Positions 16,292-51,962 of a stretch of 64,000 nucleotides of DNA are shown here, one piece after another (within the stretch, counting starts at the first letter, position 1; each line of letters starts with the position of its first letter). Location: contig DASUEN010000171.1 of the NCBI GenBank assembly GCA_036275055.1, positions 42,307 to 106,306 on the forward strand, read 5' to 3'. A program made the translations under genes and the position numbers. This stretch comes from Thermoanaerobaculia bacterium. Lineage in GTDB: Bacteria; Acidobacteriota; Thermoanaerobaculia; Multivoradales; UBA5704. A model generated the notes under the pieces. The model worked only from the letters and a program-made list of their open reading frames with translations, had not been told where the DNA came from and made no database searches.

Positions 16292-16320
16292 TTGACAATG
16301 TGGCCACTAGAGGCTACATT
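16292..16320 (+). promoter_or_regulatory. Sigma-70-type promoter with embedded palindromic operator for the phd-vapC module
   Basis: TTGACA (16292-16297), N17, TACATT (16315-16320). The spacer holds the imperfect palindrome TGTGGCCACTAGAGGCTACA (16/20). ATG 16328 is 7 nt after the -10, implying a leaderless or near-leaderless mRNA. Confidence 0.45.
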
Positions 16321-16327
16321 GCTCTCT

Positions 16328-28977: not shown

Positions 28978-30176
28978 GATTCCGGGTGAAGCGGGTGGAA
29001 GGCGCCCCTGTGGTGGCCGTCCGCCTCTACCTGCAGGCGGGCTCCCGGGAAGAGGTCCTTCCCGGCCAGGCCCTGGTGACCGGCCGCATGCTCACCGAAG
29101 GAACCCGCAGCCGCGACTGGCGGCGGATCGCCGAAGAGGCCGAGAGCAAGGGGATGTCCCTCGAAAGCACCGGCCATTTCGAGTCGATCGGCGTCTCCGT
29201 CGATGCCCTGGCCAAGGACTGGGAGCTGGCCCTGGAATGGGCGGTCGAGATCCTGCTCGACCCCATCTTCCCCGCCGACCGTGCGGCCTGGACGGCCCGC
29301 CAGGCCGCGGCCGAGCTGGAGAGCCTGGCGGATCAGCCGGACGTCAAGACGATGTGGGGATTCCTGGAGCAGCTCTACACGCCCCATCCCCGATGCCGCC
29401 CCACCCATGGCACCGTGGAGAGCCTCCTCAGCCTCACCCCCGGCGACTGCGCCGCGTTCCATCAGCGGTCGCAGGCGCACGGCATCGTGGCCGCCGTGGC
29501 CGGCGTGGTGGACGAGGATGCCGTGCGCGACCGCCTCATCCGTCTGCTCGGCCGTCCGGGCGTGGACGCCGAGCGCTACCCGCCGCCGTCGGCGCCTGTG
29601 GGCCTCGGCCCCCGGCACGTCGTCTCCCTCGAAGCGAGCGATCAGGCCCATCTCTACATCGGCCACCTCACCGTTCCCCGCCGCCATCCGGACTACGCGG
29701 CCCTGGAGCTGCTGGCCGTCGTCCTCGGCTCGGGCGCTGGGCTGACCGGGCGGATTCCGGCCCGTATCCGCGAGCGCGAAGGGCTCGCCTACACCGCCTT
29801 CGCGCAGACCGTCTCCGGCGCCGGCTTCGACGCCGGCCGCCTGCTGACCTACGTGGGCACCTCGGCCTCCACCGTCGAGCAGGCCGAGCGGGGCGTGGTG
29901 GAGGAGATCACCCGACTGGTGGCGGACGGCATCGAGGATTCTGAGTTGGAAGAGGCCCGCGCCTACCTCCTCGGCCGTGAGCCCTTCCGCCACGAGACCG
30001 CCCGTCAATGGGCCGACCTGCTCGTCGAAGCCGAGGAGTACGACCTCCCCTTGGACGACTTCGCGCACCGCAAGACCGAGCTCGAAGCGCTCGACCGCGC
30101 CGCCGTGGAAGCCGCCGCCCGCCGCCATCTCCATCCGGAGGCGCTGCAAGTGACGGTGGGGATGCCGGAGGCGTGA
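28974..30176 (+). CDS. M16 family peptidase, non-catalytic (no HxxEH) partner subunit
   Basis: TTG 28974 (TTGA overlap) or GTG 28986. M16 fold pattern, with no zinc motif visible. Confidence 0.8.
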   Translation: MRFRVKRVEGAPVVAVRLYLQAGSREEVLPGQALVTGRMLTEGTRSRDWRRIAEEAESKGMSLESTGHFESIGVSVDALAKDWELALEWAVEILLDPIFPADRAAWTARQAAAELESLADQPDVKTMWGFLEQLYTPHPRCRPTHGTVESLLSLTPGDCAAFHQRSQAHGIVAAVAGVVDEDAVRDRLIRLLGRPGVDAERYPPPSAPVGLGPRHVVSLEASDQAHLYIGHLTVPRRHPDYAALELLAVVLGSGAGLTGRIPARIREREGLAYTAFAQTVSGAGFDAGRLLTYVGTSASTVEQAERGVVEEITRLVADGIEDSELEEARAYLLGREPFRHETARQWADLLVEAEEYDLPLDDFAHRKTELEALDRAAVEAAARRHLHPEALQVTVGMPEA

Positions 30177-30280
30177 AGGGCGTCTCGGGGGGCGGCCTTG
30201 GAGCAAAAGGCAGCGCTGGTGAGACATTAGAGAGCCCTCATGGGACATTGCGGTGTGCTGTGGACGGGAGGAGGAGCGCC

Positions 30281-30385
30281 CCGCAATGTACCACGAACGT
30301 CCCCCAATGTGCCAAGAGCACGCCGCAATGTGCCACGGGCGCACCGCTATGTGCCCTGAGCATTCCGCAATGTTCCACGGAGGGA
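30281..30385. repeat. Five exact-phase 21-bp direct repeats with core CCGCAATGTGCCAC (iteron-like)
   Basis: Cores begin at 30281, 30302, 30323, 30344 and 30365. A further in-phase copy lies at 30428 (+63 bp) and an inverted copy ACATTGCGG at 30245-30253. Spacers between cores are not conserved. Confidence 0.85.
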
Positions 30386-30467
30386 CATCAGGTCAGGAGA
30401 GGCGCTGAGGGCTCCGGATGGAGCGCGCCGCAATGTCTCTTCGCCGCTCGCGAAGCGAGGAGAGGCG

Positions 30468-30878
30468 CTATTCCTTCGCTTCCGGGGAGGCCGAAAGCTT
30501 GCGGTAGACCGTCAGCCGCTTTCCGCTGCCTTCCTCCGCCACTCCGAGGACGCCGTCGAAGATCAGCTCACGCAGGGCGCGATGGAGAGAAGACCGTCCA
30601 GGCTCACGGTCGAGCACGCGGCAGACGTGGTTCTTGGTGAATTCCTCCGGTAGCTGGTCCATCGCCGCCTTCACCTCCCTGTAGAGCGACCAGGGTTCTT
30701 GCTTGCCGGCGGGCAGGGACGCTACGGTGGCCTCCGAGTCCTCCGGCTCGCCCTGAGCCGCCCAGAGCGCCTCCAGGGCCTGAGCCTCCGTCCGATGCGC
30801 CGCCTCCAGCAGCTCGACCCCGGCGCGCAGCCGCTCGTCGAGCTCGCGTTTGCGCTGGACGTACTCGGAATGTCTCAT
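30468..30878 (-). CDS. Hypothetical protein: N-terminal coiled coil plus C-terminal winged-helix-like segment
   Basis: 136 aa from ATG 30878: MRHSEYVQRKRELDERL...; the C-terminus NHVCRVLDREPGRSSLHRALRELIFDGVLGVAEEGSGKRLTVYRK looks wHTH-like. No family recognised. Confidence 0.5.
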   Translation of the reverse strand: MRHSEYVQRKRELDERLRAGVELLEAAHRTEAQALEALWAAQGEPEDSEATVASLPAGKQEPWSLYREVKAAMDQLPEEFTKNHVCRVLDREPGRSSLHRALRELIFDGVLGVAEEGSGKRLTVYRKLSASPEAKE

Positions 30879-31020
30879 GGGACAAAGAGTGGAACAAATA
30901 GGGGGATGGGGGCAAGGGGGGGCGCCTCTCGGAGCCGACCGCGCCTCCATCGTAGATTGGCAAGTGGAGATGCTGCCCGCGACGAGGAGGAAGGAGTAGA
31001 ATGACCGAGAGGATAAGCCC

Positions 31021-31212
31021 ATGAGCCGGAATGCTGCCAGGAACTATCGGAAAGAGATGCCAGGTCCTAACGACGCGACCTCTCCCACGCGCGTTGCGGA
31101 CGATTCGAAGGAGATCAGGCGCAGGCAACTCGCCGAGGTTTTGAGCCAGCAGGGAAAGATTGATTTGGATATCGACCCAGAGAGGCTCGTTCAGCTTCGC
31201 TCCGCTCAATGA
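31021..31212 (+). CDS. VapB-like antitoxin remnant (C-terminal toxin-binding tail recognisable, N-terminus atypical)
   Basis: 63 aa. The C-terminus GKIDLDIDPERLVQLRSAQ resembles the W/x-GDLDxMR tail of VapB antitoxins. An ATGA overlap joins it to the PIN fragment. Confidence 0.4.
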   Translation: MSRNAARNYRKEMPGPNDATSPTRVADDSKEIRRRQLAEVLSQQGKIDLDIDPERLVQLRSAQ

Positions 31213-31295
31213 TCCTCGTCGACAGCTCCGCGCTCATCGAGTACTACAGACCTTCCGGCTCAGCGGGGACTCGCACTGCTGTGGCGGCGGCTTAG
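31209..31295 (+). pseudogene. vapC: Truncated vapC (PIN toxin), N-terminal 28 codons only
   Basis: MILVDSSALIEYYRPSGSAGTRTAVAAA* carries the canonical PIN N-terminus (ILVDSS). It ends at TAG 31293-31295, exactly where GC content drops. Confidence 0.6.
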
Positions 31296-31296
31296 G

Positions 31297-31623
31297 CTAT
31301 CTCCTAGAGGCAACCCGCTGCAGAACCTTCCCGATTTTCTCCAAAGCCTGCCCGATCTCGCCTAGTAACAGGCGATCCTCTCCGGTAAAGACCTGTTGAG
31401 TGATAATGAGCGGTTCTTTGCGGGGTCTCCCTTTCCTTGCCAATCCTTCCTCCCGGAGCTTGAGGAAGACTGGTATGGCTTCCGGAGGATAGCGGCGTTT
31501 TCGTCCCTCTCCCTGGCAGGGGATGCGAGCCGCGTATTGACTAGCGTATTTTGAAAGAGTTGTAGCGTTGATGCCGGTCTTTTCGGCAATCTCTGTCAGC
31601 GTAAGCAACGTGTCCGATTGCAT
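31297..31623 (-). CDS. MerR/excisionase-type helix-turn-helix DNA-binding protein
   Basis: ATG 31623 follows AGGAG. LLTLTEIAEKTGINATTLSKYASQY...RKRRYPPEAIPVFLKLRE is a MerR-like HTH followed by a wing. Confidence 0.7.
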   Translation of the reverse strand: MQSDTLLTLTEIAEKTGINATTLSKYASQYAARIPCQGEGRKRRYPPEAIPVFLKLREEGLARKGRPRKEPLIITQQVFTGEDRLLLGEIGQALEKIGKVLQRVASRR

Positions 31624-31640
31624 GGCGTTCTCTCCTAACT

Positions 31641-32996
31641 TCACAAAGAGGGTGTCCCACCTTCAAATTTCACCCCACAAGGTCGGGGTATCCAGGTTGC
31701 TCTTAGATGAGATGAGATGACTTTTGGATAGTCATTTGTAAGGAAGGTGCCATCGGCGACAGCATTCACCAAAGACGCCCAAAGTTGTAGGCTATCTCTT
31801 GTAAGCCCCCATTCGCCCAACTGTCGACCTACTTTCTTGGCTAACGAGATCGCCTCATGAGACTCCTGAAGCAGCAGGCGGACTTGTATGCGGTCTATTG
31901 CCAGCAGCGTAGCATCGAAATACAGATGGGCTTGCATGTAGGTATTGGCAGCATTGTCAAGGAATCTCTTGGCGTACTGATACGCTTGATTTGCAAGAGC
32001 GATCCGACCTCTCAGCCAAAGATAATCCCCGGTAATTTGTGGATCAGAATGGCGAGCATATAAATAAGTGTAGGTCTCAACTATGGAACCTGCTTCTTCC
32101 ACCTCTCCCAAGCTCAGGTAGCAACGGGCTAGGGTATGGCGTGCTGATAACTCCGCAATGTCAAGCTTTCCTTCTTTGTCAATCTGAATTAGGACCGCTA
32201 GCCCCTCTTCCGCGATTTCGATAGCGTGGGCTGGATCAACGTGAGTCACGATATACGCCTGTTGAATGAGCGTAAGGGCGACACCTTTGAGATCTCCCAC
32301 TTTGCGAAACATAGATATAACTCGGGTTAGCAGGGCTGCTCCCTCCAAGAAGAGTCCAATGGCGTATAGCAAGTTTGCGGTATTGACTCCTAACATAGCG
32401 TCCTCAAGCATGTCGCCCGAACCGTGCGTCAGTTCACGCCGTGCCAACTCCAAGGCTTCTGCCGCTCCCGTCAAGTCTCCTGCGCGAGTTTTTACCATTC
32501 CAACATTAGAGAACGCCTGTCCTCTGCAATCATGCACCAATCCGGGTCCGTATTGGTCTTCAGGTAACCTGAGTGCTATTTCTAAGGCTAGCTCGGCTAG
32601 GTCTACGCCATATAGAACATCCACTCGGCAAGCGATCCGTACCAATTTCGTAACGTGCGCGAAGAATTCGATGGTCTGGAGAAGGGGATTTCCTCGTACG
32701 ACCTGGAGGCGAAACGGGTGTTCAGATTCTTTTAGCCAGTCCCACAACTCAGCGGCCTTGCCCTTCTGCTCTTCGCGCTCGATCTGAGCGAGCTGCGCAG
32801 CAAATGATGCACGAGAGAAAGCCCGATCGTAACTGCTTGTGAGATAAGCATCCCTAAAGGACTGAAGCACCGCTCCGCATCGTTGGCATTGGGTCAAGAG
32901 GTGAGCCACCACGGACTGGCACTCCTCCCTATTGTTTAGGGAGCCGGCAAGGAACAGAGATAGGGACTCGACAGAGGGGTGGTCCGTACGCGGCAT
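31641..32996 (-). CDS. Soluble protein with N-terminal anti-sigma-type zinc finger (zf-HC2/ZAS-like) and a ~380-aa TPR-like helical repeat domain
   Basis: 451 aa with an AGGAG RBS. The N-terminus SLSLFLAGSLNNREECQSVVAHLLTQCQRCGAVL follows the anti-sigma zinc-finger pattern (H-x4-C-x2-C here). No TM segment. Repeated helical hairpins run throughout. Confidence 0.75.
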   Translation of the reverse strand: MPRTDHPSVESLSLFLAGSLNNREECQSVVAHLLTQCQRCGAVLQSFRDAYLTSSYDRAFSRASFAAQLAQIEREEQKGKAAELWDWLKESEHPFRLQVVRGNPLLQTIEFFAHVTKLVRIACRVDVLYGVDLAELALEIALRLPEDQYGPGLVHDCRGQAFSNVGMVKTRAGDLTGAAEALELARRELTHGSGDMLEDAMLGVNTANLLYAIGLFLEGAALLTRVISMFRKVGDLKGVALTLIQQAYIVTHVDPAHAIEIAEEGLAVLIQIDKEGKLDIAELSARHTLARCYLSLGEVEEAGSIVETYTYLYARHSDPQITGDYLWLRGRIALANQAYQYAKRFLDNAANTYMQAHLYFDATLLAIDRIQVRLLLQESHEAISLAKKVGRQLGEWGLTRDSLQLWASLVNAVADGTFLTNDYPKVISSHLRATWIPRPCGVKFEGGTPSL

Positions 32997-33052
32997 GAGA
33001 ATAGGCTCCTATTGGGTAATTCGCCGCAGTATACTTCATTCTTGTCAAGAAA

Positions 33053-33076
33053 GCCCCAGGTACTTTCCCCTGGGGC
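33053..33076 (-). terminator. Hairpin with short U-tract between the peptide gene and the ZAS-TPR gene (partial terminator)
   Basis: The minus strand reads GCCCCAGG-GGAAAGTA-CCTGGGGC followed by TTTCTTGAC, 15 nt after the peptide gene stop. Confidence 0.5.
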
Positions 33077-33090
33077 CGGAGACTTGGCCA

Positions 33091-33384
33091 CTAGCTGTGG
33101 GTGCATCCCCAAGGGTCAATCGATCCCCTGATATCGCAGGTCGGTGAGTCCTGTTGAGATGAGATGGAGGCAGTCCCGCATAGCCCCCACGGATCAATGC
33201 TACCCCGTAGGCAGGTTGCCTCAGTGAGCTTGACCAGTACGGAGGTAAGACGGTCCCATGCTGAGATTGCAGTAGGACGGGCTGCCGCCCCCCTTCCCCC
33301 TCTTGGCTTCTGGGCTTCCAACGGGCTACAGAGGGTCAAAGACAGGGCTAAGGCGCCGAGAGCAAAGGCTATGCGCTTCCTCAT
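33091..33384 (-). CDS. Small secreted peptide precursor with two Cys-bracketed RGSIDPWG repeats
   Basis: 97 aa with a GGAAGGA RBS. Signal peptide MRKRIAFALGALALSLTLCSPLEA|Q. Mature part contains TCLRGSIDPWGLC and TCDIRGSIDPWGC. Confidence 0.6.
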   Translation of the reverse strand: MRKRIAFALGALALSLTLCSPLEAQKPRGGRGAAARPTAISAWDRLTSVLVKLTEATCLRGSIDPWGLCGTASISSQQDSPTCDIRGSIDPWGCTHS

Positions 33385-33799
33385 GGGTGCATCCTTCCGA
33401 GGGGGCGGACTTACCTAACCCGGAATGGGATAGGAGTTAGGGCATTCCCCTCCATTTGGACAGTGAGGAAGCTACTCCGTTGGGGCGACATAGGGATAAT
33501 CTCTAAACGTCACAACCTACATGGTTTATCGCGCTAAAACATCGGGCTGCTTGTTTTAACGGGCAGCTTTGAGTCTGGTTCCGTGCTGTCGGAGAGGAAC
33601 AAGATTTCGAGGGGAAGACACCTTGACGCGGCTGGAGGGCGGCTGGGAAAAGAGGGCCGAGGTGATGAGGGTCTTGGGGAGGTGGAAAGCCGGCTGGGAG
33701 CAGACGCCCGGCAGACGGTGCGGCGGGAAGGGAACCATCCCGAGCACATCCCCCAGCGTTCCCTGCTACTCTTGAGGACATCCTGATTTCGAGGTCCGG

Positions 33800-34432
33800 A
33801 TGTCCGACGCTGACGCAGCCATTCAGGCGATCGTCGCCGATCTCCAGGCGGGGCGGGCCGTCGAGGAGGGCTTTCGTCTCCTCTGCGAGCGCTTTCACCG
33901 CCCGGTGTACAGGTTCTTCGCCCGGCGCGGCTTCCCCGAGGCCGACTGCTTCGACCTAACCCAGGAGACATTCCTTGGGATCTATAGGGGGATCGGGTCG
34001 TTCCGGCGCGATGCCCCGTTCACGACCTGGCTGTTCAAGGTGGCGACCAATGCCTACCGCAAGCGTCTGCGCCTGCAGGGCGCGGGAAAGCGGGCCGGCT
34101 ACGAGGTCCCCTTGAGCTCCCAGCCTGAGGAAGAGGACGATCGCCCCGCCTTCCAGCCCGTGGCGCCGGGTCCTCTTCCCGAGGCCTCACTGCTTCAGGC
34201 CGAGCGCGCCCGGCTGCTGCGCGAGGCCGTCCACGAGTTGCCGGACCAGATGCGGAAGTGCTTGATCTTGAACGTTTACCATGAGCTCAAGATGAGGGAG
34301 ATCGGCCAATTGCTCCACCTGTCGCCCGAGACGGTGAAGGTCCACCTCTTCCAGGCGCGGCGGCGGCTGCACAAGGCACTGGGCCCCCTCTTCGCGAGCT
34401 CCATGCCGGACGGAGGCGAGGCATCGTCATGA
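33800..34432 (+). CDS. ECF (group 4) RNA polymerase sigma factor
   Basis: Region 2 is FDLTQETFLGIY...TWLFKVATN. Region 4 is DQMRKCLILNVYHELKMREIGQLLHLSPETVKVHLFQARRRL. Confidence 0.9.
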   Translation: MSDADAAIQAIVADLQAGRAVEEGFRLLCERFHRPVYRFFARRGFPEADCFDLTQETFLGIYRGIGSFRRDAPFTTWLFKVATNAYRKRLRLQGAGKRAGYEVPLSSQPEEEDDRPAFQPVAPGPLPEASLLQAERARLLREAVHELPDQMRKCLILNVYHELKMREIGQLLHLSPETVKVHLFQARRRLHKALGPLFASSMPDGGEASS

Positions 34433-35238
34433 GCGATCAAGAGCCCGAGATCCGCCAGGCCGTGGAGGAGTGGACGGCCGAGACCGGCGGGGCCGGCGAG
34501 GGCGGCGGCGAGCACCCCGACGCGGAAACGCTGGCCGCCTACCATACCCGCGAGCTGCCGCCCGCGGCGGAGCAGCGCATCCAGGATCACCTCCTGCTCT
34601 GCCGCGAGTGCGCCGGGTTGCTGCTCGACCTCGAAGAGCTGGACGACCCGGATTTCGGCCGCGAGATCGAGGTTCCCGCGGGCACGGGAGAGGCCCTCTG
34701 GGACGGCCTGCGGCAGGAGATCACCCGCAAGGAGCCGGCGCCACCGGCGGCTGCGGTGATCCCGTTCCCCTCCCGCCCGCGCCCGGCTCCGCCGCTCTGG
34801 ATCTCCTCCCTGGTCGCCGCCCTCGTGGTGGCCGTGATCGGCCTCTCCGTCTGGGTCGCGTCGCTGCGCCGGACCGTGGGGGAGCTGTCCCGGCCGGAGG
34901 TCAACTCCACGGTGCTGGACCTCGTCCCCCGCGGCATCGGGCAGCGGGAAGGGGGGGAGGTACCGGCCGCCGTGGTGCCGTCCGGCTCCCGCATGGTCAC
35001 GCTCATCCTGAGCCCTGCCCGGCGTGGGGATTTCCAGGATTACGAAGCGGAGATCGCGCGCGCCGCCGGCGGGGCGGTGTGGCGGGAGCGGGGGCTGCGG
35101 CCGAACGACTACGGCTCGTTCAGCCTGACCCTGCCGCGCCGGGCCCTCGGCACCGGCGAGCACCGGCTCCGCCTGTTCGGCATCCGGAATGGCGCCCGGG
35201 AGGTCCTCGGCGAGTATGCGTTGCGGCTCGCGCCCTGA
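34429..35238 (+). CDS. Zinc-finger (ZAS, H-x3-C-x2-C) transmembrane anti-sigma factor
   Basis: ATGA overlap with the sigma gene. HLLLCRECAGLL motif; single TM LWISSLVAALVVAVIGLSVWVA; extracytoplasmic domain of about 125 aa. Confidence 0.8.
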   Translation: MSDQEPEIRQAVEEWTAETGGAGEGGGEHPDAETLAAYHTRELPPAAEQRIQDHLLLCRECAGLLLDLEELDDPDFGREIEVPAGTGEALWDGLRQEITRKEPAPPAAAVIPFPSRPRPAPPLWISSLVAALVVAVIGLSVWVASLRRTVGELSRPEVNSTVLDLVPRGIGQREGGEVPAAVVPSGSRMVTLILSPARRGDFQDYEAEIARAAGGAVWRERGLRPNDYGSFSLTLPRRALGTGEHRLRLFGIRNGAREVLGEYALRLAP

Positions 35239-38188
35239 GACGGCGGCGCTCCTGGCTGCCGCTCTCCTGCTCGCCGGCTGCGAGCGGTCGCCGCCGGTGC
35301 ACAAGCCGGCGGCGGGTTCCCCCGCGCCGCGCGTCGCTCCAGCCCGCCCTGCCGCCGCCCGGCTCCTTCGCCTCGCTCCGGGAGTCCTCGACGAAGTCGT
35401 GCTGAAGGGCGGCGAGGAAAGCGCCTATCTCCTCGATCTCGCTACGGGTCAGTACGCTGGCCTGGTGGTCGATCAGCAGGGGATCGACGTGGAGGTGAGG
35501 CTGCGGGCGCCCGGCGGGAAGATCGTGGCCGCCGTCGACAGCCTCAACGGCATGATCGGGCCTGAGCCCCTGCCGTTCGTGGCCGAGACCGGCGGACGCT
35601 TCCGGCTGGAGATCGGGTCGTCCTCTCGTGGAGCACCAGCCGGCCGCTACGTCCTGCGTCTCGAAGCCTTGCGCCCGGCGACCGCGCGAGACCGCGCCCT
35701 GGTGGAGGCCGAGCGGGAGCTGGCGGAAGGGGAACGGCTCTACCAAGCGGGCACTCCCGCGTCTCTTCAGGCGGCCCTGGCGCGCGAGAAAGAGGTCCTC
35801 GCTCGCTTCCGCGTTCTCGGCCTGCCTGCACGAGAGGCCGAAGCTCTGTTCAGTCTGGGAAGTATCCACGAGAAACTGGACGCGGGGGAGGCTGCCGCCA
35901 GTGACTTCCGGCAGGCCCTGGAGATCTTCAGCGGCCTGGGGGACGAGGCGCGGGCGGGGGTCACACTCGGCAATCTCGGTACGTTGGAGCGCGCTCAAAG
36001 CGGCCGGCGGGCACTCACCTTACTTCGCCAGGCACTCCCTTTGCTCCGCCGGTCCCACAACCGGCTGGAAGAGGCCGCGACCCTGAGCAACATTGGTAAG
36101 GCTGCCATGGAGGTTGGCGAAACCGGCGAGGCCCTCGCGGCTTTCGAGCAGGCGATCTCTCTTGAGCGCTCCCTGGGCGATCGAGCCGACGAGGGGAAAT
36201 TGTTGCTCAATCTCGGTTTATTGGAGACCGACCTGGGCCAGACGTCACGGGCTCTCGATCACCTCGGCCAGGCCGTGGCACTGCTGCAGGCCGCCGGGGA
36301 TCGCCGCGGGCTGGGCGTGGCCCTGGCCCGGACGGGGATGGCTCTTGCGGACGGCGGCCACCCCCGTGGAGAGGTCGTGGCGGCTTTTCAGCGCGCCCTC
36401 CGGCTCCAGCGCGAAATTGGAGACCGGCGCCGGGAAGCCGTGACACTCACCAATCTGGGCTGGTACTACCATCAGCAAGGAGAGATCCGGCAGGCGGAAC
36501 AGATTTTCCGTGAGACGCTCGCCATCTTCCAGGCCCGTGGCGATCGCGGCGAGGAGGCCGGAGCCCTCGTCAACCTGGGCGGTATCGATCTGGAGCGCGG
36601 GCGTCTCGCTGAGGCCGAGAAGTCCTTTCTGCGAGCGCAGGCTCTCTTCACCGAGATCGGTGATCCTGAGGAAGAGGCCACCGCCCTGTTTTTCTTGGCA
36701 CGGGTTCGGCGCGCCGAAGGGCAGCTTGTGGCGGCCTTCACCGCCATCGAAAGCGCTGCCGCCCGCATCGAGGCGCTCCGCAGCAAACCGCCCAGCCCGG
36801 ACCTGCGCCTCACGTTCTTCGCCTCCAAACAGGATATTTATGGGCTCCGCGTCGATCTCCTGATGGAGCTTCACCAGGACGCGCAGGCTCTGATGGCCAG
36901 CGAGGAGGCGCGGGCACGCACGCTCCTCGACCTCCTGGACAAGGTGGACGTCCAGCCGGCGGGCTCCGGCACTCTACTGACCTCCCGGGAGATCCAACGG
37001 CAGGTCGTGGAGAAAGGCACGCTCCTCCTCGAATACTCCCTGGGAAAGGAGCGCAGCTTCCTGTGGGCCGTGACGCCGGAGTCGCTGGAGAGCTTCGAGC
37101 TTCCCTCACGAAAAGTGCTGGAAGAGGAAGCCCGCAACGCCGCGTTCCTCCTGGCGTCCAGCGGCCGGACCCTCGCGCGTGCGCAGACCGACCTGGCTCT
37201 GGCCGGCCTTTCCCGCCGGCTGCTCGGGCCGGCGGCTCACCGGCTGCGCGCAGCGGACCGGCTGGTGGTCGTCCCGGACGGTGCGCTCTGGGCCGTCTCC
37301 TTCGCAGCCCTGCCGGACCCCGACACTGGCGCGCCGCTCATCGCCGGCCATGAGATCGTCTCCCTCCCCTCGGCCTCGGTGCTGCCCCGGCTGCGCGCCG
37401 CCGCTGCGGGGCGGCACCCGGCAGCCGGCGCGGTCGCCGTGGTGGCCGATCCCGTCTTCAGCGCCAACGATCCGCGGGTGACGCCCCCTCCAGGGGTGCC
37501 CACGGCGGCTCCCGAGCCCCGAGGCGGCCCTGTGGCACCTTTCGCAAGGCTGCCCTTCTCCCGCGCCGAAGCGCAGGCGATCCTTTCCGTGGCTCCTCGC
37601 GAGGGGACGCTCGCAGCCCTCGACTTCGCGGCGAGCCGCGAAACCGTCCTCAGCGGCCGCCTGGCCCGGTACCGGATCGTCCACTTCGCGACCCATGCCC
37701 TCCTGAATACCGAAAACCCCGAGCTTTCGGGAGTCATGCTCTCGCAGGTCGACCCCCACGGCCGCCCGCGCGACGGTTTCCTACGGCTCGACGACGTCTA
37801 CCGGCTGAACCTTGCCGCGGACCTGGTGGTGCTTTCCGCCTGCCGGACGGCGCTCGGCCGGGAAATCCGCGGCGAGGGTCTGGTCGGCCTCACCCGGGGC
37901 TTCTTCTCGGCCGGCGCCCGCCAGGTCCTGGTCAGTCTCTGGCCGGTGGAGGACCGCGCCACCGCCGAGCTCATGCAGCGCTTCTATCTCGAGATGCTCG
38001 GCCGGGGGCGTCCGCCCGCCGCCGCTCTCCGGGAGGCGCAGATCGCGATGTGGAGAGACGAGAGCCGGCGGCCGGCCTATTACTGGGCGGGATTCACCCT
38101 CCAGGGGGATTGGCACACGGCGGATAAACCATTTTCCCCGAAGCGGATCTCTAAACCCTCCATACGGCGAACCCAATCCGGAGGATGA
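35216..38188 (+). CDS. Lipoprotein with N-terminal beta domain, TPR array and C-terminal CHAT (caspase-like) protease domain
   Basis: Lipobox LLLAGC (alternative start 35189). At least six TPR-like units (xLxNLG motifs). CHAT catalytic dyad context: IVHFATHA (His) and LVVLSACRTALG (Cys). It overlaps the anti-sigma gene by 23 nt. Confidence 0.9.
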   Translation: MRCGSRPETAALLAAALLLAGCERSPPVHKPAAGSPAPRVAPARPAAARLLRLAPGVLDEVVLKGGEESAYLLDLATGQYAGLVVDQQGIDVEVRLRAPGGKIVAAVDSLNGMIGPEPLPFVAETGGRFRLEIGSSSRGAPAGRYVLRLEALRPATARDRALVEAERELAEGERLYQAGTPASLQAALAREKEVLARFRVLGLPAREAEALFSLGSIHEKLDAGEAAASDFRQALEIFSGLGDEARAGVTLGNLGTLERAQSGRRALTLLRQALPLLRRSHNRLEEAATLSNIGKAAMEVGETGEALAAFEQAISLERSLGDRADEGKLLLNLGLLETDLGQTSRALDHLGQAVALLQAAGDRRGLGVALARTGMALADGGHPRGEVVAAFQRALRLQREIGDRRREAVTLTNLGWYYHQQGEIRQAEQIFRETLAIFQARGDRGEEAGALVNLGGIDLERGRLAEAEKSFLRAQALFTEIGDPEEEATALFFLARVRRAEGQLVAAFTAIESAAARIEALRSKPPSPDLRLTFFASKQDIYGLRVDLLMELHQDAQALMASEEARARTLLDLLDKVDVQPAGSGTLLTSREIQRQVVEKGTLLLEYSLGKERSFLWAVTPESLESFELPSRKVLEEEARNAAFLLASSGRTLARAQTDLALAGLSRRLLGPAAHRLRAADRLVVVPDGALWAVSFAALPDPDTGAPLIAGHEIVSLPSASVLPRLRAAAAGRHPAAGAVAVVADPVFSANDPRVTPPPGVPTAAPEPRGGPVAPFARLPFSRAEAQAILSVAPREGTLAALDFAASRETVLSGRLARYRIVHFATHALLNTENPELSGVMLSQVDPHGRPRDGFLRLDDVYRLNLAADLVVLSACRTALGREIRGEGLVGLTRGFFSAGARQVLVSLWPVEDRATAELMQRFYLEMLGRGRPPAAALREAQIAMWRDESRRPAYYWAGFTLQGDWHTADKPFSPKRISKPSIRRTQSGG

Positions 38189-38192
38189 GACG

Positions 38193-38507
38193 ATGACCAT
38201 TTCGACAGTGACCCCGCGTTCGATTCCGGCGACCCCCCGTGTCTCGGTGATCCGAGATTGCGTGCTCGGACTGTGCCTCATGCACGAGCTGGCCTTCTTG
38301 TGCCTTTTGCGCGAGTTGGACCTGAGGTTCCGGCGGCGATCACGGCCCAAAAACTCGGATTCCGCCGCCCGCAGGAGTGACGGCGAAAGCCCGAAGAGCC
38401 GCCTCAGAGAATTTGTCTACCGGCGCCTCGACCATGTGATCAACACCGCCACTGGAACCATCATCGACATCGACGACAAGGTCAAGACGGGCCCTGGCCA
38501 AGGGTGA
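38193..38507 (+). CDS. Small hypothetical protein (104 aa), last gene of the sigma/anti-sigma/CHAT operon
   Basis: GGAGGA lies 7 nt before ATG 38193, which is 4 nt after the CHAT stop. A Cys-rich hydrophobic segment (CVLGLCLMHELAFLCLL) is followed by a basic segment. GC3 is fairly high. Confidence 0.55.
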   Translation: MTISTVTPRSIPATPRVSVIRDCVLGLCLMHELAFLCLLRELDLRFRRRSRPKNSDSAARRSDGESPKSRLREFVYRRLDHVINTATGTIIDIDDKVKTGPGQG

Positions 38508-38550
38508 GCCGCCGGCGAAGATACGGCCACTCTCACCGATTTTCTCGATA

Positions 38551-38584
38551 GGGCGCCCTCCGCGTGGGGCGCCCTTTTCTTTTG
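38551..38584 (+). terminator. Rho-independent terminator
   Basis: GGGCGCCC (38551-38558), an 8-nt loop, GGGCGCCC (38567-38574), then TTTTCTTTT. Confidence 0.7.
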
Positions 38585-38726
38585 ACATCGGCATACGTCG
38601 AGCTGATTCGGGACGAGCCGGTAAACCGAATCTTCCGGAGCGGATCTGTCGCTTCGTGGAATCGCCGGACGGGCCGGCGGCAGCCTGAACGAAAATCATT
38701 CGAAGGTTGGAGCGAAAGGAGCTCTC

Positions 38727-39200
38727 ATGTCAACGTACGTCATTCCCGTCACGACCATCTCGCAGCCGGACATGCAGTACGACTACTACCAAATCAACCC
38801 TCCCCAGCACGCCGAGAAAGCCTACCAGCCAAACCAGGGGGATCAGTTCCCGCCGGTTTCGACAGTGCCGGCGAGGAGCCCGTCCGGACAAGTCGTCGTG
38901 ATGGTGACCAACATCCACAACCAGGTGCCCTTCGCCGTTGGGCAGATGGAGCTTGTCGATTACAACTCTCTGATCCGGTTCAACGGGGGCGTTTTCCCCA
39001 CTCCCGCGCAGGTGCAGCAGATCGTCAATCAGCATCCGGAGATCGTCGCCGCTCACCTCAGTGGACAGACGCCGTTCCTGGCAAGAGTATCCGTTGCGCC
39101 GAACGACCCGATCACCGTGAGGCCGCTCACCGGCGGCTACATGGCGAAAGCCGTCAGCTATGAAGACTTCGTGGCCTGTCACGGAAGGCCCTCGATTTAA
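38727..39200 (+). CDS. Hypothetical protein (157 aa), Gln/Pro-rich N-terminus
   Basis: AAAGGAG RBS. Composition is more AT-rich than the backbone. No signal peptide and no family recognised. Confidence 0.55.
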   Translation: MSTYVIPVTTISQPDMQYDYYQINPPQHAEKAYQPNQGDQFPPVSTVPARSPSGQVVVMVTNIHNQVPFAVGQMELVDYNSLIRFNGGVFPTPAQVQQIVNQHPEIVAAHLSGQTPFLARVSVAPNDPITVRPLTGGYMAKAVSYEDFVACHGRPSI

Positions 39201-39371
39201 CGTCACGAAACCGGCTTTGGCGGGGCAACGGAAGCCCCTGGCGACGGTTTAGGGCGACTTCGGTTGGGAGACCTCGCTGCCGCCCTACGGCTCGCGTTGG
39301 TGGCCTGCGAGGCGTGCCTGGAGCGAAACAGTCGAGCCGCAGGAGCGTAGAAGAAGAGGAAGGAGGACGGC

Positions 39372-39580: not shown

Positions 39581-41794
39581 TCAGAGGGTATTGGAGGTGG
39601 AGAAGAGTTTGTCGCCGACGCGCGGCACTATGCACTCCAGTGTGGCTCCGGGCACCCAGGTGAGACCCGCCGGCACGGCAGCCGCGGCCTCGTAGAGGCC
39701 CTTCTTCGTCTGGTAGCCCGACACGCTGGGCGTAGTCTGGGTACCGATCTCGAACACCAGCTTGCTGCCTCCCGTCCCACCGGCGTCCGCGATGTGCCAG
39801 TCGCGGAAGACGCGGTCGCCGACGTTGACCAGCACGCCGTTCTGCGCCAGGTGGAAGTAGAAGCCGAAGGAGCCGTCCTCGTGCTGGATGCTGAGCCAGT
39901 TGCCGATGCTCGAGGGATCGATCGAATCGACGACGGGGTGGGACGCGTCGAACGCCACCACCCTGCCGCCGCGCGCGGCGTAGACGTCGCCCCCCGTGGA
40001 ACCGGAGAAAGCCAAAGCGTACTGATGAGGGGCGCTGTAGCCGGAGGTCGGGTCGTCGGAGTTCCCCTTGATGACCAGCCAGAGCGGATAACCGCCGGTA
40101 TAGGGGAGGTAATAGAAAGAATCGAGGGAGCCCGCGCAGTCGAAGACCCGGTCGCGTACGATGCTCGGCAGGGTGACGGAATATTCGAACTGCTTGCCGT
40201 TCGTGTTGACGCCGAAGATGGCCGGCCAGCTCAGGCCCGCCACGTGGTCGACGCCGTTGGTGCCGAGGTTGGTGGGGGCGTCCGCTCCGTCGTCGTAGAG
40301 CTGGTCGGTCTCATAGATCGCGAAGCTGTCGCCGATCAGCACGCCGGTGGGGAAATCGGCGGGATTGTTGTTGGTGATCTTGTATCCCATGGCGCCGAAG
40401 GTGGGGTTGGGATCGGGAACGCTGGTGAGGGTGAGGCCGGTGATCTTGGCCGGCTGCCAATCGTTGATCACCTGGTTGCCGCCGACGTCGAAAACCGTTC
40501 TGTCATAGGTCACCGAGGCGTAGTGGCCGAAGGGAAGCACGACCAGTGCGAAGGCCTCGGAGCCCTGGACCTGGGGAGCGCTGCAGGTGAAGACGCAGGT
40601 GGTCTGGAAAGTGGTTGCGGTGACGGTGGCGGGCTGGCCGATCACGAGCGCGCTGGGCAGCGATACCGGCACATCGCCGTCCTTGAGGGCGTTGGCGATG
40701 GTCCAGGTGGTGCCACCCTGGGTGACGTCGATTTTCATCGTGTAGTGGGTGAAGGAGATGCCGCCTCCGGAGCAGCCGGAGGCGATTTGGGCGGCCAACC
40801 GCTGGAGGCTCTCGAGGGCGAGGATGCCGAAAAAGCCTTGGGAGTAGCCCCCTTTTTCGCGGAGCCGGTAGGGCTCGCTGGGATCACTTTTGAACGGCGG
40901 GAATTGTTGGAACGGCGCCACGGAGGCCGAAAGGCACGGCGTCGTCTTGAGCGCCGGTCCCGGAGCAGGCAGCTCGCTGCGCAGCGAGGTCAGCAGCGCA
41001 GTGCCGTCGGCAAAGCGGAGGCCGCGGCCGTCGATGGTCCGCCCTGGCATCAGCCCGGGCGGCAACGCGACCGCGGCGATGCCGGTCAGACGATCGCCCT
41101 CCATGCGGAAAGTGCGGGAGGCATCGTCGACCTCGATCACGCGGCCGTGCAGCCGGCCGGCTCCCACCACCTCGCCGCAGGCGGCGCGCGCGAGGCCGCT
41201 GACGGCGCGAGCATCCTCCACCACTTGGTGGACTCGAGCTTGGTGGACGCGCAGGAAGGCCACGCTCATGGCGCCTTCGGCGAGGCCGGTCCTGGCGTCG
41301 CGGGCGCCGAGGAGCCCGGGCGCCTGGGCGCGGATCGCGCTCTCGAAGCTCGTCTCCCCTCCCTCGAGGCCGGTCACGGTGGCTGCGAAGAGATCGGCGG
41401 CGCGGCAAACGTCGCCCTTGCGCATCACCTCCGCCGCCTCCTCCAGACCCAGGCTCCCGCCGCGCAGGGCATGGCCCGTTTCCGCGTAGGCAGGGTCGGA
41501 CTCCAGCGCCGCGGCCTGCTCGTCGAGTTTGGAACGGACGGGATCGACCACGGCTTCCGGCGTTAGGGCAAGGTCCAGCGCCGAGCAACCCTTGCCGACG
41601 AGGGTGGCGCCGCGCGGAGTGGAGAGGCAGAGGTCCAGGCGGTCGGGGACGCCGTCGTGATCGCGATCCGGCAGCGTTGCGGCGAATCCGGCGGTCGCCG
41701 TGAAACCGGCGAGAGCCAGGAAGACCACCGGGACGGCGTGCGCCCGGCGGCGGTGGAAGGGACGATGATGCTCGCGAACCAGAGAAGTGTTCAT
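39581..41794 (-). CDS. Secreted large protein with C-terminal degenerate M23/LytM-like domain
   Basis: Signal-like VVFLALAGFTATAGFA and a thrombospondin-type-3-like DRDHDGVPD. The C-terminal M23 fold pattern (VYAARGGRVV...LSIQHEDGSFGFYFHL...GDRV) is present, but the HxxxD and HxH zinc ligands appear replaced (HQYALAF; SKLVFEI). Confidence 0.7.
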   Translation of the reverse strand: MNTSLVREHHRPFHRRRAHAVPVVFLALAGFTATAGFAATLPDRDHDGVPDRLDLCLSTPRGATLVGKGCSALDLALTPEAVVDPVRSKLDEQAAALESDPAYAETGHALRGGSLGLEEAAEVMRKGDVCRAADLFAATVTGLEGGETSFESAIRAQAPGLLGARDARTGLAEGAMSVAFLRVHQARVHQVVEDARAVSGLARAACGEVVGAGRLHGRVIEVDDASRTFRMEGDRLTGIAAVALPPGLMPGRTIDGRGLRFADGTALLTSLRSELPAPGPALKTTPCLSASVAPFQQFPPFKSDPSEPYRLREKGGYSQGFFGILALESLQRLAAQIASGCSGGGISFTHYTMKIDVTQGGTTWTIANALKDGDVPVSLPSALVIGQPATVTATTFQTTCVFTCSAPQVQGSEAFALVVLPFGHYASVTYDRTVFDVGGNQVINDWQPAKITGLTLTSVPDPNPTFGAMGYKITNNNPADFPTGVLIGDSFAIYETDQLYDDGADAPTNLGTNGVDHVAGLSWPAIFGVNTNGKQFEYSVTLPSIVRDRVFDCAGSLDSFYYLPYTGGYPLWLVIKGNSDDPTSGYSAPHQYALAFSGSTGGDVYAARGGRVVAFDASHPVVDSIDPSSIGNWLSIQHEDGSFGFYFHLAQNGVLVNVGDRVFRDWHIADAGGTGGSKLVFEIGTQTTPSVSGYQTKKGLYEAAAAVPAGLTWVPGATLECIVPRVGDKLFSTSNTL

Positions 41795-41880
41795 GACGAT
41801 CTCCAGAAGAAACTCCCAGACCGGTCATCGGCCAGGGTCTGTCTGGAGAGGGATGCGGAGGAAGCAGGAAAAAAGGGACA

Positions 41881-42483
41881 TCACGGCCCGGGAGGCGGGC
41901 TGCCGACGAGCTCGCTGAGGAGGAAGGCACGGGCCTTCCGCCAGTCGCGTTTCGCCGTGCGCTCCGTCAGGCCCTGCACCTCGCCGATCTCGGCGAAACC
42001 CAGGCCGGCGAAGAAGCGGAGCTCGACGAGGCGGGCCAGGCGGGGGCTCTCGGCCGCCAGACGCTGCAGGGCGGCATCGAGGGCCAGGAGGTCGCCTGTG
42101 AGCCGGGCGTCTTCCGCGGCCGCCGGCTCTCCCCGTCCGTCGAGCTCGAGGCGCACGACGTCGCCCGAGCGTTTGGCGGCGTCCCGCCGGCGGGCGTAGT
42201 CCACCACCACATGACGCATCACCCGCGCCGCGAGGTTGAAGAAATGTGACCGGTCCACGGCGGAGAGGCCCGCCGGCTGGGCGAGGCGCAGGTAGGCCTC
42301 GTGCACAAGAACGGTGGTGCCGAGGGTCTCGCCGGGCCGTCCGCGGACGCCGAGCTGCCGGTGGGCCAGGGCGTGGAGATCGCGATAAACGCGGGAAAAC
42401 AGAGCGTTGGCGGCGGCTGGATCGCCCTCCCGGACCGCGGAGAGCAGGCGGGTGATTTCCTCGGTGGATTTGTAAGGAGACAT
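41881..42483 (-). CDS. ECF sigma factor of the Ser/Thr-kinase-associated type
   Basis: AGGAGG RBS. EITRLLSAVREGDPAAANALFSRVY...LVHEAYLRL...FAEIGEVQGLTERTAKRDW. It lies directly downstream of a TPR kinase. Confidence 0.9.
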   Translation of the reverse strand: MSPYKSTEEITRLLSAVREGDPAAANALFSRVYRDLHALAHRQLGVRGRPGETLGTTVLVHEAYLRLAQPAGLSAVDRSHFFNLAARVMRHVVVDYARRRDAAKRSGDVVRLELDGRGEPAAAEDARLTGDLLALDAALQRLAAESPRLARLVELRFFAGLGFAEIGEVQGLTERTAKRDWRKARAFLLSELVGSPPPGP

Positions 42484-42498
42484 TTTTCCTCCTGGATG

Positions 42499-45552: not shown

Positions 45553-46317
45553 ATGTCATCGAGTCTTGGGCAAACCGTCCCCGTCAACGATATGGAGATG
45601 TATTACGAAACCCGCGGCGAAGGTGAGCCTCTGGTGCTGCTGCACGGCGGGGGAGGAGCAGGTATCAATTGGACACTTCACTTCCCGGAACCACCCGAAG
45701 GATACCGGCTCATCGTGCCGGACCTGCGCGGCCATGGGAGGTCGACCAATCCCGCGCAGAGGATCACCTACCGGCAATTGGCGCTCGACGTCTTCGCGCT
45801 GTTGGACCACTTGGGGATCGAACGCTTCAAGGCCGTGGGATTGAGTCTGGGCGCCAAGACGCTGCTGCACGTGGCCACGCAGCAGCCGGACCGGCTCGAA
45901 GCGGCTGTGCTGGTCAGCGCAACGCCCTACTTTCCGGAGCAGGCGCGTGCGATCATGCGCCAGATGACGCCGGAAAATCGCACCGACGCAGAGTGGGACC
46001 AGATGCGCCAGTGGCACCATCATGGTGACGAGCAGATCCGGGAGCTGTGGCGCCAGATGAACGCCTTCAAGGACAGCTATGACGACATGACCTTCACGCC
46101 GCCCTATCTATCGACGATCACCGCCCGCACGCTGATCGTGCATGGCGACCGGGATCCTCTGTACCCCGTGAGGCTGGCGCTGGAAATGTACGAGGCGATC
46201 CCCAAAGCGTTCCTCTGGGTCGTTCCGAACGGCGGGCATGGCCCCATCTTCGGCGAGAGGAGCCAGCGTTTCGTGGAGACAACGCTGGCGTTCTTGCGGG
46301 ACGACCCCAACCTTTAA
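45553..46317 (+). CDS. Alpha/beta hydrolase fold protein
   Basis: LVLLHGGGG, nucleophile elbow GLSLGA, C-terminal GGHGP. Its stop overlaps the convergent RND gene stop. Confidence 0.85.
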   Translation: MSSSLGQTVPVNDMEMYYETRGEGEPLVLLHGGGGAGINWTLHFPEPPEGYRLIVPDLRGHGRSTNPAQRITYRQLALDVFALLDHLGIERFKAVGLSLGAKTLLHVATQQPDRLEAAVLVSATPYFPEQARAIMRQMTPENRTDAEWDQMRQWHHHGDEQIRELWRQMNAFKDSYDDMTFTPPYLSTITARTLIVHGDRDPLYPVRLALEMYEAIPKAFLWVVPNGGHGPIFGERSQRFVETTLAFLRDDPNL

Positions 46318-49300: not shown

Positions 49301-49451
49301 CGGTGGTGATGACGACGAAGGGGAACTCGACGTTCGGAAAGCGGTCGACGCCGAGCTGGAAGTAGGCGAAGATGCCTACCACCACCAGCGCGAGAATGAG
49401 CACCGTCGCGAAGACGGGCCGGCGGACGCAGAGCTCAGCGAGCTTTTGCAT
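46314..49451 (-). CDS. RND efflux permease (AcrB/HAE1-like)
   Basis: ATG 49451 follows GGGGAGGA. MQKLAELCVRRPVFATVLILALVVVG...; 12-TM plus two large loop architecture; 1045 aa. Confidence 0.95.
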   Translation of the reverse strand: MQKLAELCVRRPVFATVLILALVVVGIFAYFQLGVDRFPNVEFPFVVITTVLPGAAPEEMETEVTDKIEEAVNTINGIDQLISTSSENVSLVQIQFTLEKNPDVAAQEVRDKVNAILANLPKDADPPIIQKINADADPVISIALSGPASQRDISEYADRVLKRRLETVFGVGQVKLVGQRLRQINVITDTAKLDSLNLTAADVVNALGSQNVQIPGGKVAQNRRDLTLRTYGRVGTPADFARLPITTRNGYPVRVGDVARIEDGVEEAESVATVAGKPAVVLQVIKQSGTNTIAVVDAIKERFEDLKGQIPAGWHAEIVRDQSKFIVAAVDAVKEHLMVGSLFAAGIVWLFLRRFRPTLISAVAIPSSLIATFAAMKYMGFTLNVLTLLALTLAVGIVIDDAVVVLENIFRFMEEKKMTPRQAAVEGTKEVGLAVLATSLSLIAVFLPVAFMGGIVGRFMYSFGITMAFAIAVSLIVAFTLTPMLASRWLRSNDTAQPGEGSRQRGVYAAVERVYLRLLDFAMAHRWVVVIAMVLVFLSTIPLFMAVNKNFLPNDDESQFQVVVRVPEGANLTTTQTILESVASQVRKLPGVVTTVNTIGNDPQQTLNLGLVYVQLSDPKTRKEDQFHLMQRVREEILPQYEALKVRAQVAQVSAFGNGVDNEIQFWIGGPDLDKLNEYAQKLKAALVKVPGTTDVDTNFIVGKPELGVRIDRDKTADLGVRVQDIASSLNVLVGGQKATSYFEGGEEYEVHVRADEADRNNAQAIAAMEVPSLSRGTVPLRDLVTLNEGTGPSLINRLNRRRQVMVTANMRPGFSSQTAIDTLNRTAADLKMPAGFSSGLTGRSREQGKAFTSFMIAFLLSIIFMYLILAAQFESWLHPFTILLSLPMTVPFALLSILMLNQSVNIFSMLGILVLFGIVKKNSILQIDHTNALRAQGMPRAEAIREANRDRLRPILMTTLAFVAGMIPLVASSGTGAGTNRAIASVILGGQLLSLLLTLIGTPVSYSIFDDWANSKVFSRLGALFTVRKSRPKKVIGEPSPVTD

Positions 49452-51728: not shown

Positions 51729-51962
51729 GTCTCTTTTTCCTCCCGAGCCTCTCCTTTGCACCGAGAGGGTGCGAGGAGGGCCGGCCTACTGCCTTTTCGT
51801 CCAACGGCTGATTTCAAGGTAGATTTGCCGCGAAAGCTCCCGGGACCTCTCCGCCCCGCCCGAACCTTGGACATACGGTAGAAACCGGCTGAAGTTTACG
51901 GCGGAACCTTGTGCCCTTTCCTGCGTTCTATGAGAATCGTCCGGCGAGGAGAACCATTCCCC

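Follow-up and report, generated by a model that had tools for sequence, protein, structure and literature searches.

A compact operon that joins a sigma factor of the extracytoplasmic function (ECF) type and its anti-sigma factor to an exported caspase-like protease was analysed in a 64,000-nucleotide stretch of DNA from a Thermoanaerobaculia bacterium of the phylum Acidobacteriota (assembly GCA_036275055.1, contig DASUEN010000171.1, positions 42,307 to 106,306 of the forward strand), referred to below as the window. The names of homologues likewise point to Thermoanaerobaculia. Judged from comparative sequence analysis, the genes for the sigma factor, a single-pass zinc-finger anti-sigma factor and a lipoprotein with tetratricopeptide repeat (TPR) and CHAT domains are a genuine conserved functional unit. 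We consider a functional coupling of the exported TPR-CHAT protein to the sigma/anti-sigma pair, as part of its signalling, to be probable because of a natural fusion of anti-sigma factor and protease, the fold kinship of the protease to DdvA of Myxococcus xanthus, a conserved catalytic dyad and the logic by which single-pass anti-sigma factors are inactivated. We assign the locus to a form of the DdvA-type TPR-CHAT/ECF module that is split, has a lipoprotein as its protease and is widespread in Acidobacteriota. This assignment was made because the trio is conserved, because the homologue P0106 is a colinear fusion, and because DdvA is the closest solved structure. The three genes are:

33800..34432, plus strand: ECF sigma factor gene, 210 aa, with Sigma70_r2 and Sigma70_r4_2 domains
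34429..35238, plus strand: anti-sigma factor gene, 269 aa, single-pass, with a zinc finger
35216..38188, plus strand: TPR-CHAT lipoprotein gene, 990 aa, caspase-like cysteine protease

The sigma, anti-sigma and CHAT genes are translationally coupled. The stop codon of the sigma gene and the start codon of the anti-sigma gene share the ATGA at 34429-34432, and the ATG of the CHAT gene lies at 35216, so that its first 23 nt overlap the anti-sigma gene, which stops at 35236-35238. The CHAT stop codon (38186-38188) is followed after a 4-nt gap by the ATG at 38193 of a 104-aa open reading frame (ORF), and a GGAGGA stands within the 3' end of the CHAT gene. An earlier note on this DNA, made from its letters without database searches, had described these junctions (the ATGA at 34429, the 23-nt overlap at 35216, and the 4-nt gap with a ribosome-binding site at 38193), and the coordinates confirm them. 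The note took all four genes as one operon; sigma, anti-sigma and CHAT hold as a conserved unit, and the 104-aa gene falls outside it.

Orthologous contigs were fetched for loci L001/L002, L086, L087, L088 and L003/L004, with CHAT identities of 50-75%. The sigma-anti-CHAT order was identical on all of them, and both the 4-nt and the 23-nt overlap were kept in the three closest loci, L001, L086 and L087 (for the 23-nt overlap, 3/6 orthologous loci). The genes flanking the trio vary from contig to contig, and include for example a leucine-rich repeat (LRR)-PPC protein, DsbA/VKOR and thymidylate synthase.

To place this on a broader footing, species-representative genomes were scanned with the CHAT alignment, which yielded 80 TPR-CHAT loci; ORFs were called in these loci and searched with iterated hidden Markov models of the window sigma and anti-sigma factors. 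Of the 54 acidobacterial loci, 31 had a sigma or anti-sigma gene no more than 1.5 kb from the CHAT gene, and 27 had both. Chance expectation, estimated generously from the density of sigma matches in the distal flanks, was about 8%, for a binomial tail of 2e-15. None of the 22 cyanobacterial TPR-CHAT loci had a linked sigma or anti-sigma gene. The sigma-anti-CHAT order was found mainly in Thermoanaerobaculia and Holophagales, and the order CHAT-sigma-anti mainly in Blastocatellia and Pyrinomonadaceae; in either order the genes of the trio often overlap or are separated by a few nucleotides. For a reciprocal test, we took three anti-sigma homologues (P0155, P0170 and P0167) chosen solely for their long contigs, and all three had a sigma gene upstream and a TPR-CHAT gene immediately downstream. 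The earlier note had asked whether the linkage extends beyond this genome, and it does, at the 31 acidobacterial loci and in 3/3 cases of the reciprocal test. Several modules can occur in one genome: a single Pyrinomonadaceae metagenome-assembled genome holds three (L029, L068 and L084), and tandem copies are present in L034 and L041. This multi-copy pattern is typical of paralogous signalling modules.

Whichever the gene order, the linked anti-sigma factors match essentially the full length of the family profile, including the outer beta-sandwich domain. In the Blastocatellia and Pyrinomonadaceae forms from CHAT-sigma-anti loci (L005, L013, L021, L039, L047, L070 and L082), the cysteines of the HxxxCxxC zinc motif are often gone, and about 60 residues of charged coiled coil are inserted between the transmembrane helix and the beta-sandwich (alignment A5). 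The loss of the zinc cysteines in these forms points to the outer beta-sandwich as the part that constantly accompanies the protease, and to a zinc finger that is dispensable for association with CHAT. Used as a search profile, the broad alignment A5 neither enlarged the anti-sigma family nor uncovered further fusions, probably because of the word prefilter.

Anti-sigma factor and protease are naturally fused in P0106, a 1284-aa CHAT homologue with a zf-HC2 match encoded on the TARA marine scaffold L089. Residues 23-276 of P0106 are colinear with residues 27-267 of the window anti-sigma factor (E=2e-16), in an alignment that spans the HxxxCxxC motif, the transmembrane helix, an RRxxELRxP juxtamembrane segment and the beta-sandwich. 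Residues 285-1283 then align with residues 50-966 of the window CHAT protein, where residue 50 begins the first strand past the lipid-anchor tether. P0106 therefore corresponds to the second gene plus the third gene minus its signal peptide, and its gene is preceded by an ECF sigma gene. By the Rosetta-stone argument, this fusion suggests that the anti-sigma factor and the CHAT protein work together and in the same compartment. P0106 was the sole fused form among the 120 best CHAT matches. A second, shorter CHAT-domain protein (553 aa; 3678-5339, minus strand) is encoded beside P0106 on L089, divergently from its sigma gene, and is followed by two large proteins of 886 and >1400 aa.

The sigma factor is of the minimal type, with sigma2 and sigma4 domains only (Pfam Sigma70_r2, 1.4e-12; Sigma70_r4_2, 6.9e-13). 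In NCBIfam, the superfamily model TIGR02937 alone scored above its cutoff, and the closest sequences in the PDB were of the RpoE, AlgU and SigW type.

The anti-sigma factor carries the zinc motif H54-x3-C58-x2-C61 together with an upstream H29, and none of these four residues varies among 29 homologues (alignment A3). We take the 25-residue spacing from H29 to H54 to resemble the HHCC site of ChrR. The protein fell under the thresholds of the profile models, with 18.6 bits against Pfam zf-HC2 (threshold 22.2) and 1e-7 against the NCBIfam 'antisigma' model. An AlphaFold2 model (mean predicted local distance difference test score, pLDDT, of 79) has a helical N-terminal domain, a single long hydrophobic helix at 123-154 with its transmembrane part at about 124-146, and an outer part of about 115-120 aa that folds at 160-267 into a beta-sandwich of seven to eight strands (pLDDT >90). 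A conserved juxtamembrane segment, LRRTVgELSRPevN, lies between the transmembrane part and the sandwich. No PDB sequence was matched by the anti-sigma factor, and a Foldseek search with its model returned only generic Ig/FN3-like folds. From the alignment and the model, the protein is predicted to have the layout of substrates of regulated intramembrane proteolysis (RIP), with a single-pass topology, a cytoplasmic anti-sigma domain and an extracytoplasmic domain. To bind sigma, the zinc-finger domain must be cytoplasmic; the beta-sandwich would therefore face outward. The H-x3-C-x2-C finger, single transmembrane segment and outer domain noted earlier from the translation alone are thus borne out by the A3 alignment and the model.

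The third gene encodes a CHAT domain (E=6e-71) and four TPR_12 stretches (Pfam) behind an N-terminus, MRCGSRPETAALLAAALLLAG|C, that constitutes a lipoprotein signal over residues 1-22 with the lipobox LLLAG-C22. The lipobox is kept in most Thermoanaerobaculia relatives (LLLAAC, LAAGC and similar; alignment A1), and an N-terminal hydrophobic signal is present in nearly all CHAT relatives, those of Cyanobacteria included. The motifs YRIVHFATHA and LVVLSAC are both present, and HFATH and LSAC are conserved among relatives: every sequence of alignment A1 has H823 and H827, and 21/22 have C876, the homologue P0064 having Ser in place of the catalytic Cys. By analogy with the 'HG' motif of caspases, H827 is the likely catalytic His. 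In the AlphaFold2 model (mean pLDDT 84.9, predicted TM-score 0.73), the signal helix leads into a Pro/Ala tether that is disordered (23-48) and then a beta-sandwich (56-154); a solenoid of some 20 TPR-type helices (157-576) comes next, and residues 590-966 form the alpha/beta domain of CHAT, with a disordered loop past C876. The lipobox and the His and Cys motifs had been picked out in the earlier note; both stand, with a conserved dyad. The shared compartment that it proposed is supported at the level of prediction by the lipobox or signal peptide on nearly all family members, and we likewise predict that the CHAT protein and the anti-sigma outer domain share an extracytoplasmic compartment. 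We also considered homology between the anti-sigma outer domain and the N-terminal beta-sandwich of the CHAT protein, as a basis for homotypic pairing, and rejected it (BLASTP E=0.64; hhalign probability 0.45%).

When the CHAT model was compared with the PDB using Foldseek, the DdvA structures 8RW5 and 8ROT came first (E ~3e-15), followed by Csx29 and separase. Structure-based identity between the CHAT protein and DdvA was 17%. A phmmer search of PDB sequences returned TPR proteins only (LGN/Pins, kinesin light chain), with neither DdvA nor Csx29 among them; because no CHAT structure is found in this way, the kinship to DdvA is visible at the fold level only.

In the literature, the combination of CHAT with ECF sigma or anti-sigma factors comes down essentially to one system, DdvS/DdvA, and we found no paper joining CHAT, sigma factors and Acidobacteria; CHAT is not mentioned in the main text of the ECF classification of Casas-Pastor et al. 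DdvA of M. xanthus is a single polypeptide that comprises a zinc-finger anti-sigma domain, a transmembrane helix, a flexible linker, a helical scaffold, TPRs and CHAT (PMC11506125). DdvA in which the periplasmic TPR-CHAT part is truncated becomes sensitive to RseP, and its authors propose that signal-induced CHAT autoproteolysis in trans is the site-1 step ahead of RseP (PMC11506125). They could not demonstrate this self-cleavage, because the signal is unknown and dyad mutants were silent (PMC11506125). A dimeric assembly is a further feature of the DdvS/DdvA type. DdvA-like anti-sigma factors have been reported only in Myxococcota and one Comamonas, and according to the same authors only a subset of DdvA-like pairs lies near defence systems (PMC11506125).

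The window locus shares with DdvS/DdvA an ECF sigma gene adjoining that of a zinc-finger single-pass anti-sigma factor, an extracytoplasmic TPR-CHAT part with a His-Cys dyad for which DdvA is the best structural match, and the same proposed logic of CHAT as site-1 protease followed by RseP. It differs in several respects. In DdvA the TPR-CHAT part is covalently included in the anti-sigma factor, whereas here a distinct ORF encodes it, complete with a lipoprotein signal, and the two parts are fused in P0106 only. In place of the helical scaffold the anti-sigma factor has a small Ig-like outer domain, its zinc site is an HHCC variant where that of DdvA is CHCC, and the module belongs to Acidobacteriota and not Myxococcota. 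Unlike the control of defence islands described for DdvA-type pairs, no CBASS or CRISPR island was seen near the locus in the ORFs scanned: neither Pfam (most larger ORFs) nor PADLOC (ten proteins round the locus) found defence genes, and no CRISPR-array search was run. PADLOC gave no defence-system model match for the four genes 33800-38507, only a generic TPR match.

The earlier note had instead drawn its precedent from type III-E CRISPR systems and overlooked the much closer DdvS/DdvA, the top Foldseek match. Part of that comparison holds. In Craspase (PMC10028731), as here, a TPR-CHAT protease is tied genetically to an ECF-type sigma factor, proteolysis is proposed or shown to free sigma, and Csx29 is among our top structural matches. 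Csx29, however, is a cytoplasmic protein that RNA-bound Cas7-11 activates, whereas the protease here carries an export signal; and Csx30 and Csx31 have no counterpart, the only extra ORF being an orphan and the partner a classical membrane anti-sigma factor. The Pfam and PADLOC scans round the locus, which covered part of the 64-kb window and included no CRISPR-array search, found no cas genes. The protease fold and the linked sigma factor are thus what the two systems have in common, and type III-E appears a legitimate but more distant analogy than DdvA.

Two further comparisons are informative. As in the RseA-DegS-RseP and RsiW-PrsW-RasP pathways, the anti-sigma factor is single-pass and has an outer domain, of about 120 aa as in RseA, that would need trimming before a site-2 protease could act; unlike these canonical RIP systems, whose site-1 proteases are serine or metalloproteases usually encoded elsewhere, the candidate here is a caspase-like cysteine protease of the same operon. 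The actinobacterial group ECF54, whose conserved neighbourhood holds CHAT, subtilase or carboxypeptidase genes, also links an ECF sigma factor to a CHAT protein, and proteolytic regulation has been proposed for it (PMC8999054). That group has no anti-sigma factor, in contrast to the dedicated one in this Thermoanaerobaculia locus.

These comparisons suggest a mechanism in which the ECF sigma factor would be held at the inner membrane by the zinc-finger anti-sigma factor, which displays its Ig-like beta-sandwich to the periplasm. Co-translated with it and exported to the same compartment, the TPR-CHAT lipoprotein would act on the outer part of the anti-sigma factor as a regulator that senses the signal; most likely, a protein ligand or the anti-sigma factor itself would be bound by its TPR solenoid and N-terminal beta-sandwich. 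Binding would switch on the His/Cys dyad, and the anti-sigma factor would be clipped between the membrane and the beta-sandwich (site-1), after which an RseP-type site-2 protease and cytoplasmic proteases would remove the remainder and free sigma. What we infer here is the physical interaction, the cleavage of the anti-sigma factor and the sequence in which the steps occur, along with signal and regulon. CHAT acting as the site-1 protease on the anti-sigma factor is the most likely specific mechanism, to which we would give an even chance or slightly less. The broader proposal, that across Acidobacteriota a secreted CHAT protein of the same operon is a dedicated in-trans site-1 protease for the family of anti-sigma factors with Ig-like outer domains, is more tentative still.

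Several observations weigh against this cleavage mechanism. The sigma pair is missing at 23 of the 54 acidobacterial and at all of the cyanobacterial TPR-CHAT loci, which suggests that the protease family also has other roles. The anti-sigma model has nearly no flexible linker from the transmembrane helix to the sandwich, just 151-160 dipping to a pLDDT of about 62, whereas the linker of DdvA is long. The candidate site in this segment, E-L-S-R-P, is not invariant and would place Pro at P1'. The sequence similarity between the CHAT protein and DdvA is below phmmer detection, and the site-1 role of DdvA is itself unproven, its dyad mutants behaving like the wild type without signal (PMC11506125). 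Binding and cleavage of the anti-sigma factor by CHAT are predictions, and the lipoprotein may be anchored in either the inner or the outer membrane.

Other explanations of the conserved linkage were therefore weighed. The CHAT lipoprotein could be an output of the sigma factor, either an envelope protease or a defence or cell-death effector co-expressed with it, with the anti-sigma factor sensing through its own beta-sandwich. Genes conserved near ECF sigma factors may indeed be targets and not regulators (Casas-Pastor et al.), a sigma pair is lacking beside many of the protease's relatives, and no ECF-type autoregulatory promoter was found here, the upstream motif resembling a housekeeping extended -10 element. 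We nevertheless regard this as unlikely, given that the colinear fusion in P0106 and the fused architecture of DdvA favour direct physical coupling, that the same specific anti-sigma outer domain accompanies the protease in two gene orders, and that the protease gene lies upstream of sigma in the CHAT-sigma-anti loci. That the three genes are functionally unrelated neighbours, adjacent by chance in a gene-dense and ECF-rich genome, we hold to be highly improbable. Acidobacteria are rich in ECF sigma factors, and a second, unrelated one is encoded only 3.7 kb away (41881-42483), but the linkage statistics, the reciprocal test, the conserved overlaps and the P0106 fusion effectively refute this explanation.

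The CHAT protein might also take part without cutting, as a co-anti-sigma factor or ligand sensor of the RseB or CnrX type. Binding through its TPRs and beta-sandwich would then make the anti-sigma factor more or less stable, and its protease activity would be aimed at itself or at substrates other than the anti-sigma factor. With about 420 residues the TPR solenoid is large, and a separate beta-sandwich precedes it; P0064 has Ser at the position of the catalytic Cys, and the dyad of DdvA is in a resting, misaligned state, with dyad mutants that are silent, behaving like the wild type in the absence of signal (PMC11506125). Against these points, the His and Cys are otherwise strictly kept, which would be needless for pure binding, and the established route for inactivating single-pass anti-sigma factors is proteolytic (RIP). 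A purely non-proteolytic partner thus seems to us improbable to about the same degree as an output, and cleavage of the anti-sigma factor by CHAT remains the mechanism we prefer.

The operon is bounded by the following features:

33759..33799, plus strand: conserved non-coding block, TTCCCTGcTACTCTTGAgGACATCCTGATTTCGAGGTCCGG, immediately 5' of the sigma start
38193..38507, plus strand: orphan ORF, 104 aa, 4 nt past the CHAT stop
38550..38584, plus strand: intrinsic terminator, stem 38550-38575, T-run to 38584

The upstream block carries a TGnTAnnnT motif, like an extended -10 element, and a GAGG Shine-Dalgarno sequence. It occurs once in the window and is nearly invariant in L001, L086, L087 and L088, where DNA farther upstream is unalignable; a related motif, TGATATCGT, stands upstream of sigma in the more distant loci L003, L090 and L092. 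A scan for [GT]GAAC-N14-19-CGT/GTC found no ECF-type autoregulatory promoter upstream of sigma in 16 loci, and a consensus sigma-70 scan also returned no promoter. The block's sequence tentatively suggests a housekeeping-type extended -10 promoter and not an ECF autoregulatory one. A scan of 33000-39300 against Rfam gave sub-threshold chance matches only. At the other end, the terminator stem has 10 pairs, 8 of them G-C, with TTTCTTTTGA directly after it. The hairpin is kept in L087 and partly in L086. A terminator closing the unit had been proposed in the earlier note, and is confirmed at these coordinates.

The 104-aa ORF may be translated. Its G+C content at third codon positions (GC3) is a coding-like 0.77, and its ribosome-binding site is good. 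Pfam, NCBIfam and PADLOC gave no match for it; a search of 1.84 billion representative proteins returned the protein itself and one match at E ~1e-3, and tblastn found nothing in the orthologous loci. ORFs of 50-121 aa stand right after CHAT in eight other loci, but are unrelated to the 104-aa ORF and to one another. With no homologues, no tblastn match and unrelated ORFs at the same position, we rejected it as a conserved component. The earlier suggestion that its product is a substrate, inhibitor or cofactor of the protease does not survive this comparison: the ORF is an orphan that is unconserved even at 70-75% CHAT identity, and therefore can fill none of these roles in the module at large. 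A gene that is young or evolves fast would explain it, as would an artefact of high G+C content.

Beyond the terminator, the next gene (38727-39200) encodes a 157-aa protein that has no Pfam, NCBIfam or PADLOC match. It is conserved 3' of the trio in L086 (55%) and L087 (71%), and neither L001 nor L088 has it. Upstream of this gene, about 100 nt are conserved at the DNA level (CCGrTAAACCGAATCTTCsGGAG.GGATCTGTCGCTTCGTGG...GCCGGAC.GGCCGG); this DNA can form hairpins, has no Rfam match, and could be a promoter, an operator or an element of the 5' untranslated region. Farther along, 39581-45405 (minus strand) holds the second, unrelated ECF module, made up of a Ser/Thr kinase with TPRs (42499-45405), a PF07638-type ECF sigma factor (41881-42483) and an M23 peptidase of 737 aa (39581-41794); the module is similar to kinase-regulated systems of the ECF43 type. 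A resistance-nodulation-division (RND) efflux operon follows at 46314-51761. In L001, L086 and L087 this operon lies one or two small ORFs past the trio, and the 39581-45405 module appears to have been inserted between the two.

The region upstream of the operon (30000-33800) has a G+C content of 0.56-0.60, compared with about 0.68 elsewhere, and a GC3 of 0.52-0.62, compared with about 0.85 in neighbouring genes. On its minus strand are genes for a 451-aa TPR-like protein with an N-terminal H-x4-C-x2-C motif (31641-32996), a 115-aa MerR/HTH_17-like protein whose gene overlaps that of the former by 4 nt (31297-31644), and a 97-aa ORF with a signal-like N-terminus (33091-33384). The orthologous loci hold other genes at this position, and the stretch looks like a horizontally acquired insert. 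Elsewhere in the window, a Phd/YefM antitoxin and a PIN-domain toxin are encoded by overlapping genes at 16118-17046. In the clade of 45-55% identity, a second short ECF sigma factor (182-184 aa) follows the trio in L003 and L092, and none does in L090. All three of these loci have a Pyr_redox_2 (thioredoxin-reductase-like) gene and then one for a protein of about 500 aa, with a faint AAA_5 match in L090 and L092; in L003 a von Willebrand factor A (VWA) gene comes after it. These genes 3' of CHAT may be a conserved target or partner operon.

Sigma-linked TPR-CHAT proteases are a recent theme, represented by Craspase, SAVED-CHAT cascades and DdvA. The extracytoplasmic version has so far rested on one characterised protein, DdvA, whose trigger and proposed self-cleavage are unproven. 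Reconstitution should be far simpler for the split version, in which the soluble protease is a protein of its own and the anti-sigma ectodomain is small, and its wide conservation in Acidobacteriota shows that the principle is more than a myxobacterial oddity. Acidobacteriota are abundant in soil, poorly studied and under-represented in ECF classifications, and the module offers a first functional handle on a very large family of exported bacterial TPR-CHAT proteins. If the proposed mechanism is true, the two-protein form would be an ancestral or alternative version of the DdvA mechanism, caspase-type proteolysis would be a widespread switch acting on ECF sigma factors from outside the cytoplasm, and the many paralogous modules per genome would sense different periplasmic protein cues.

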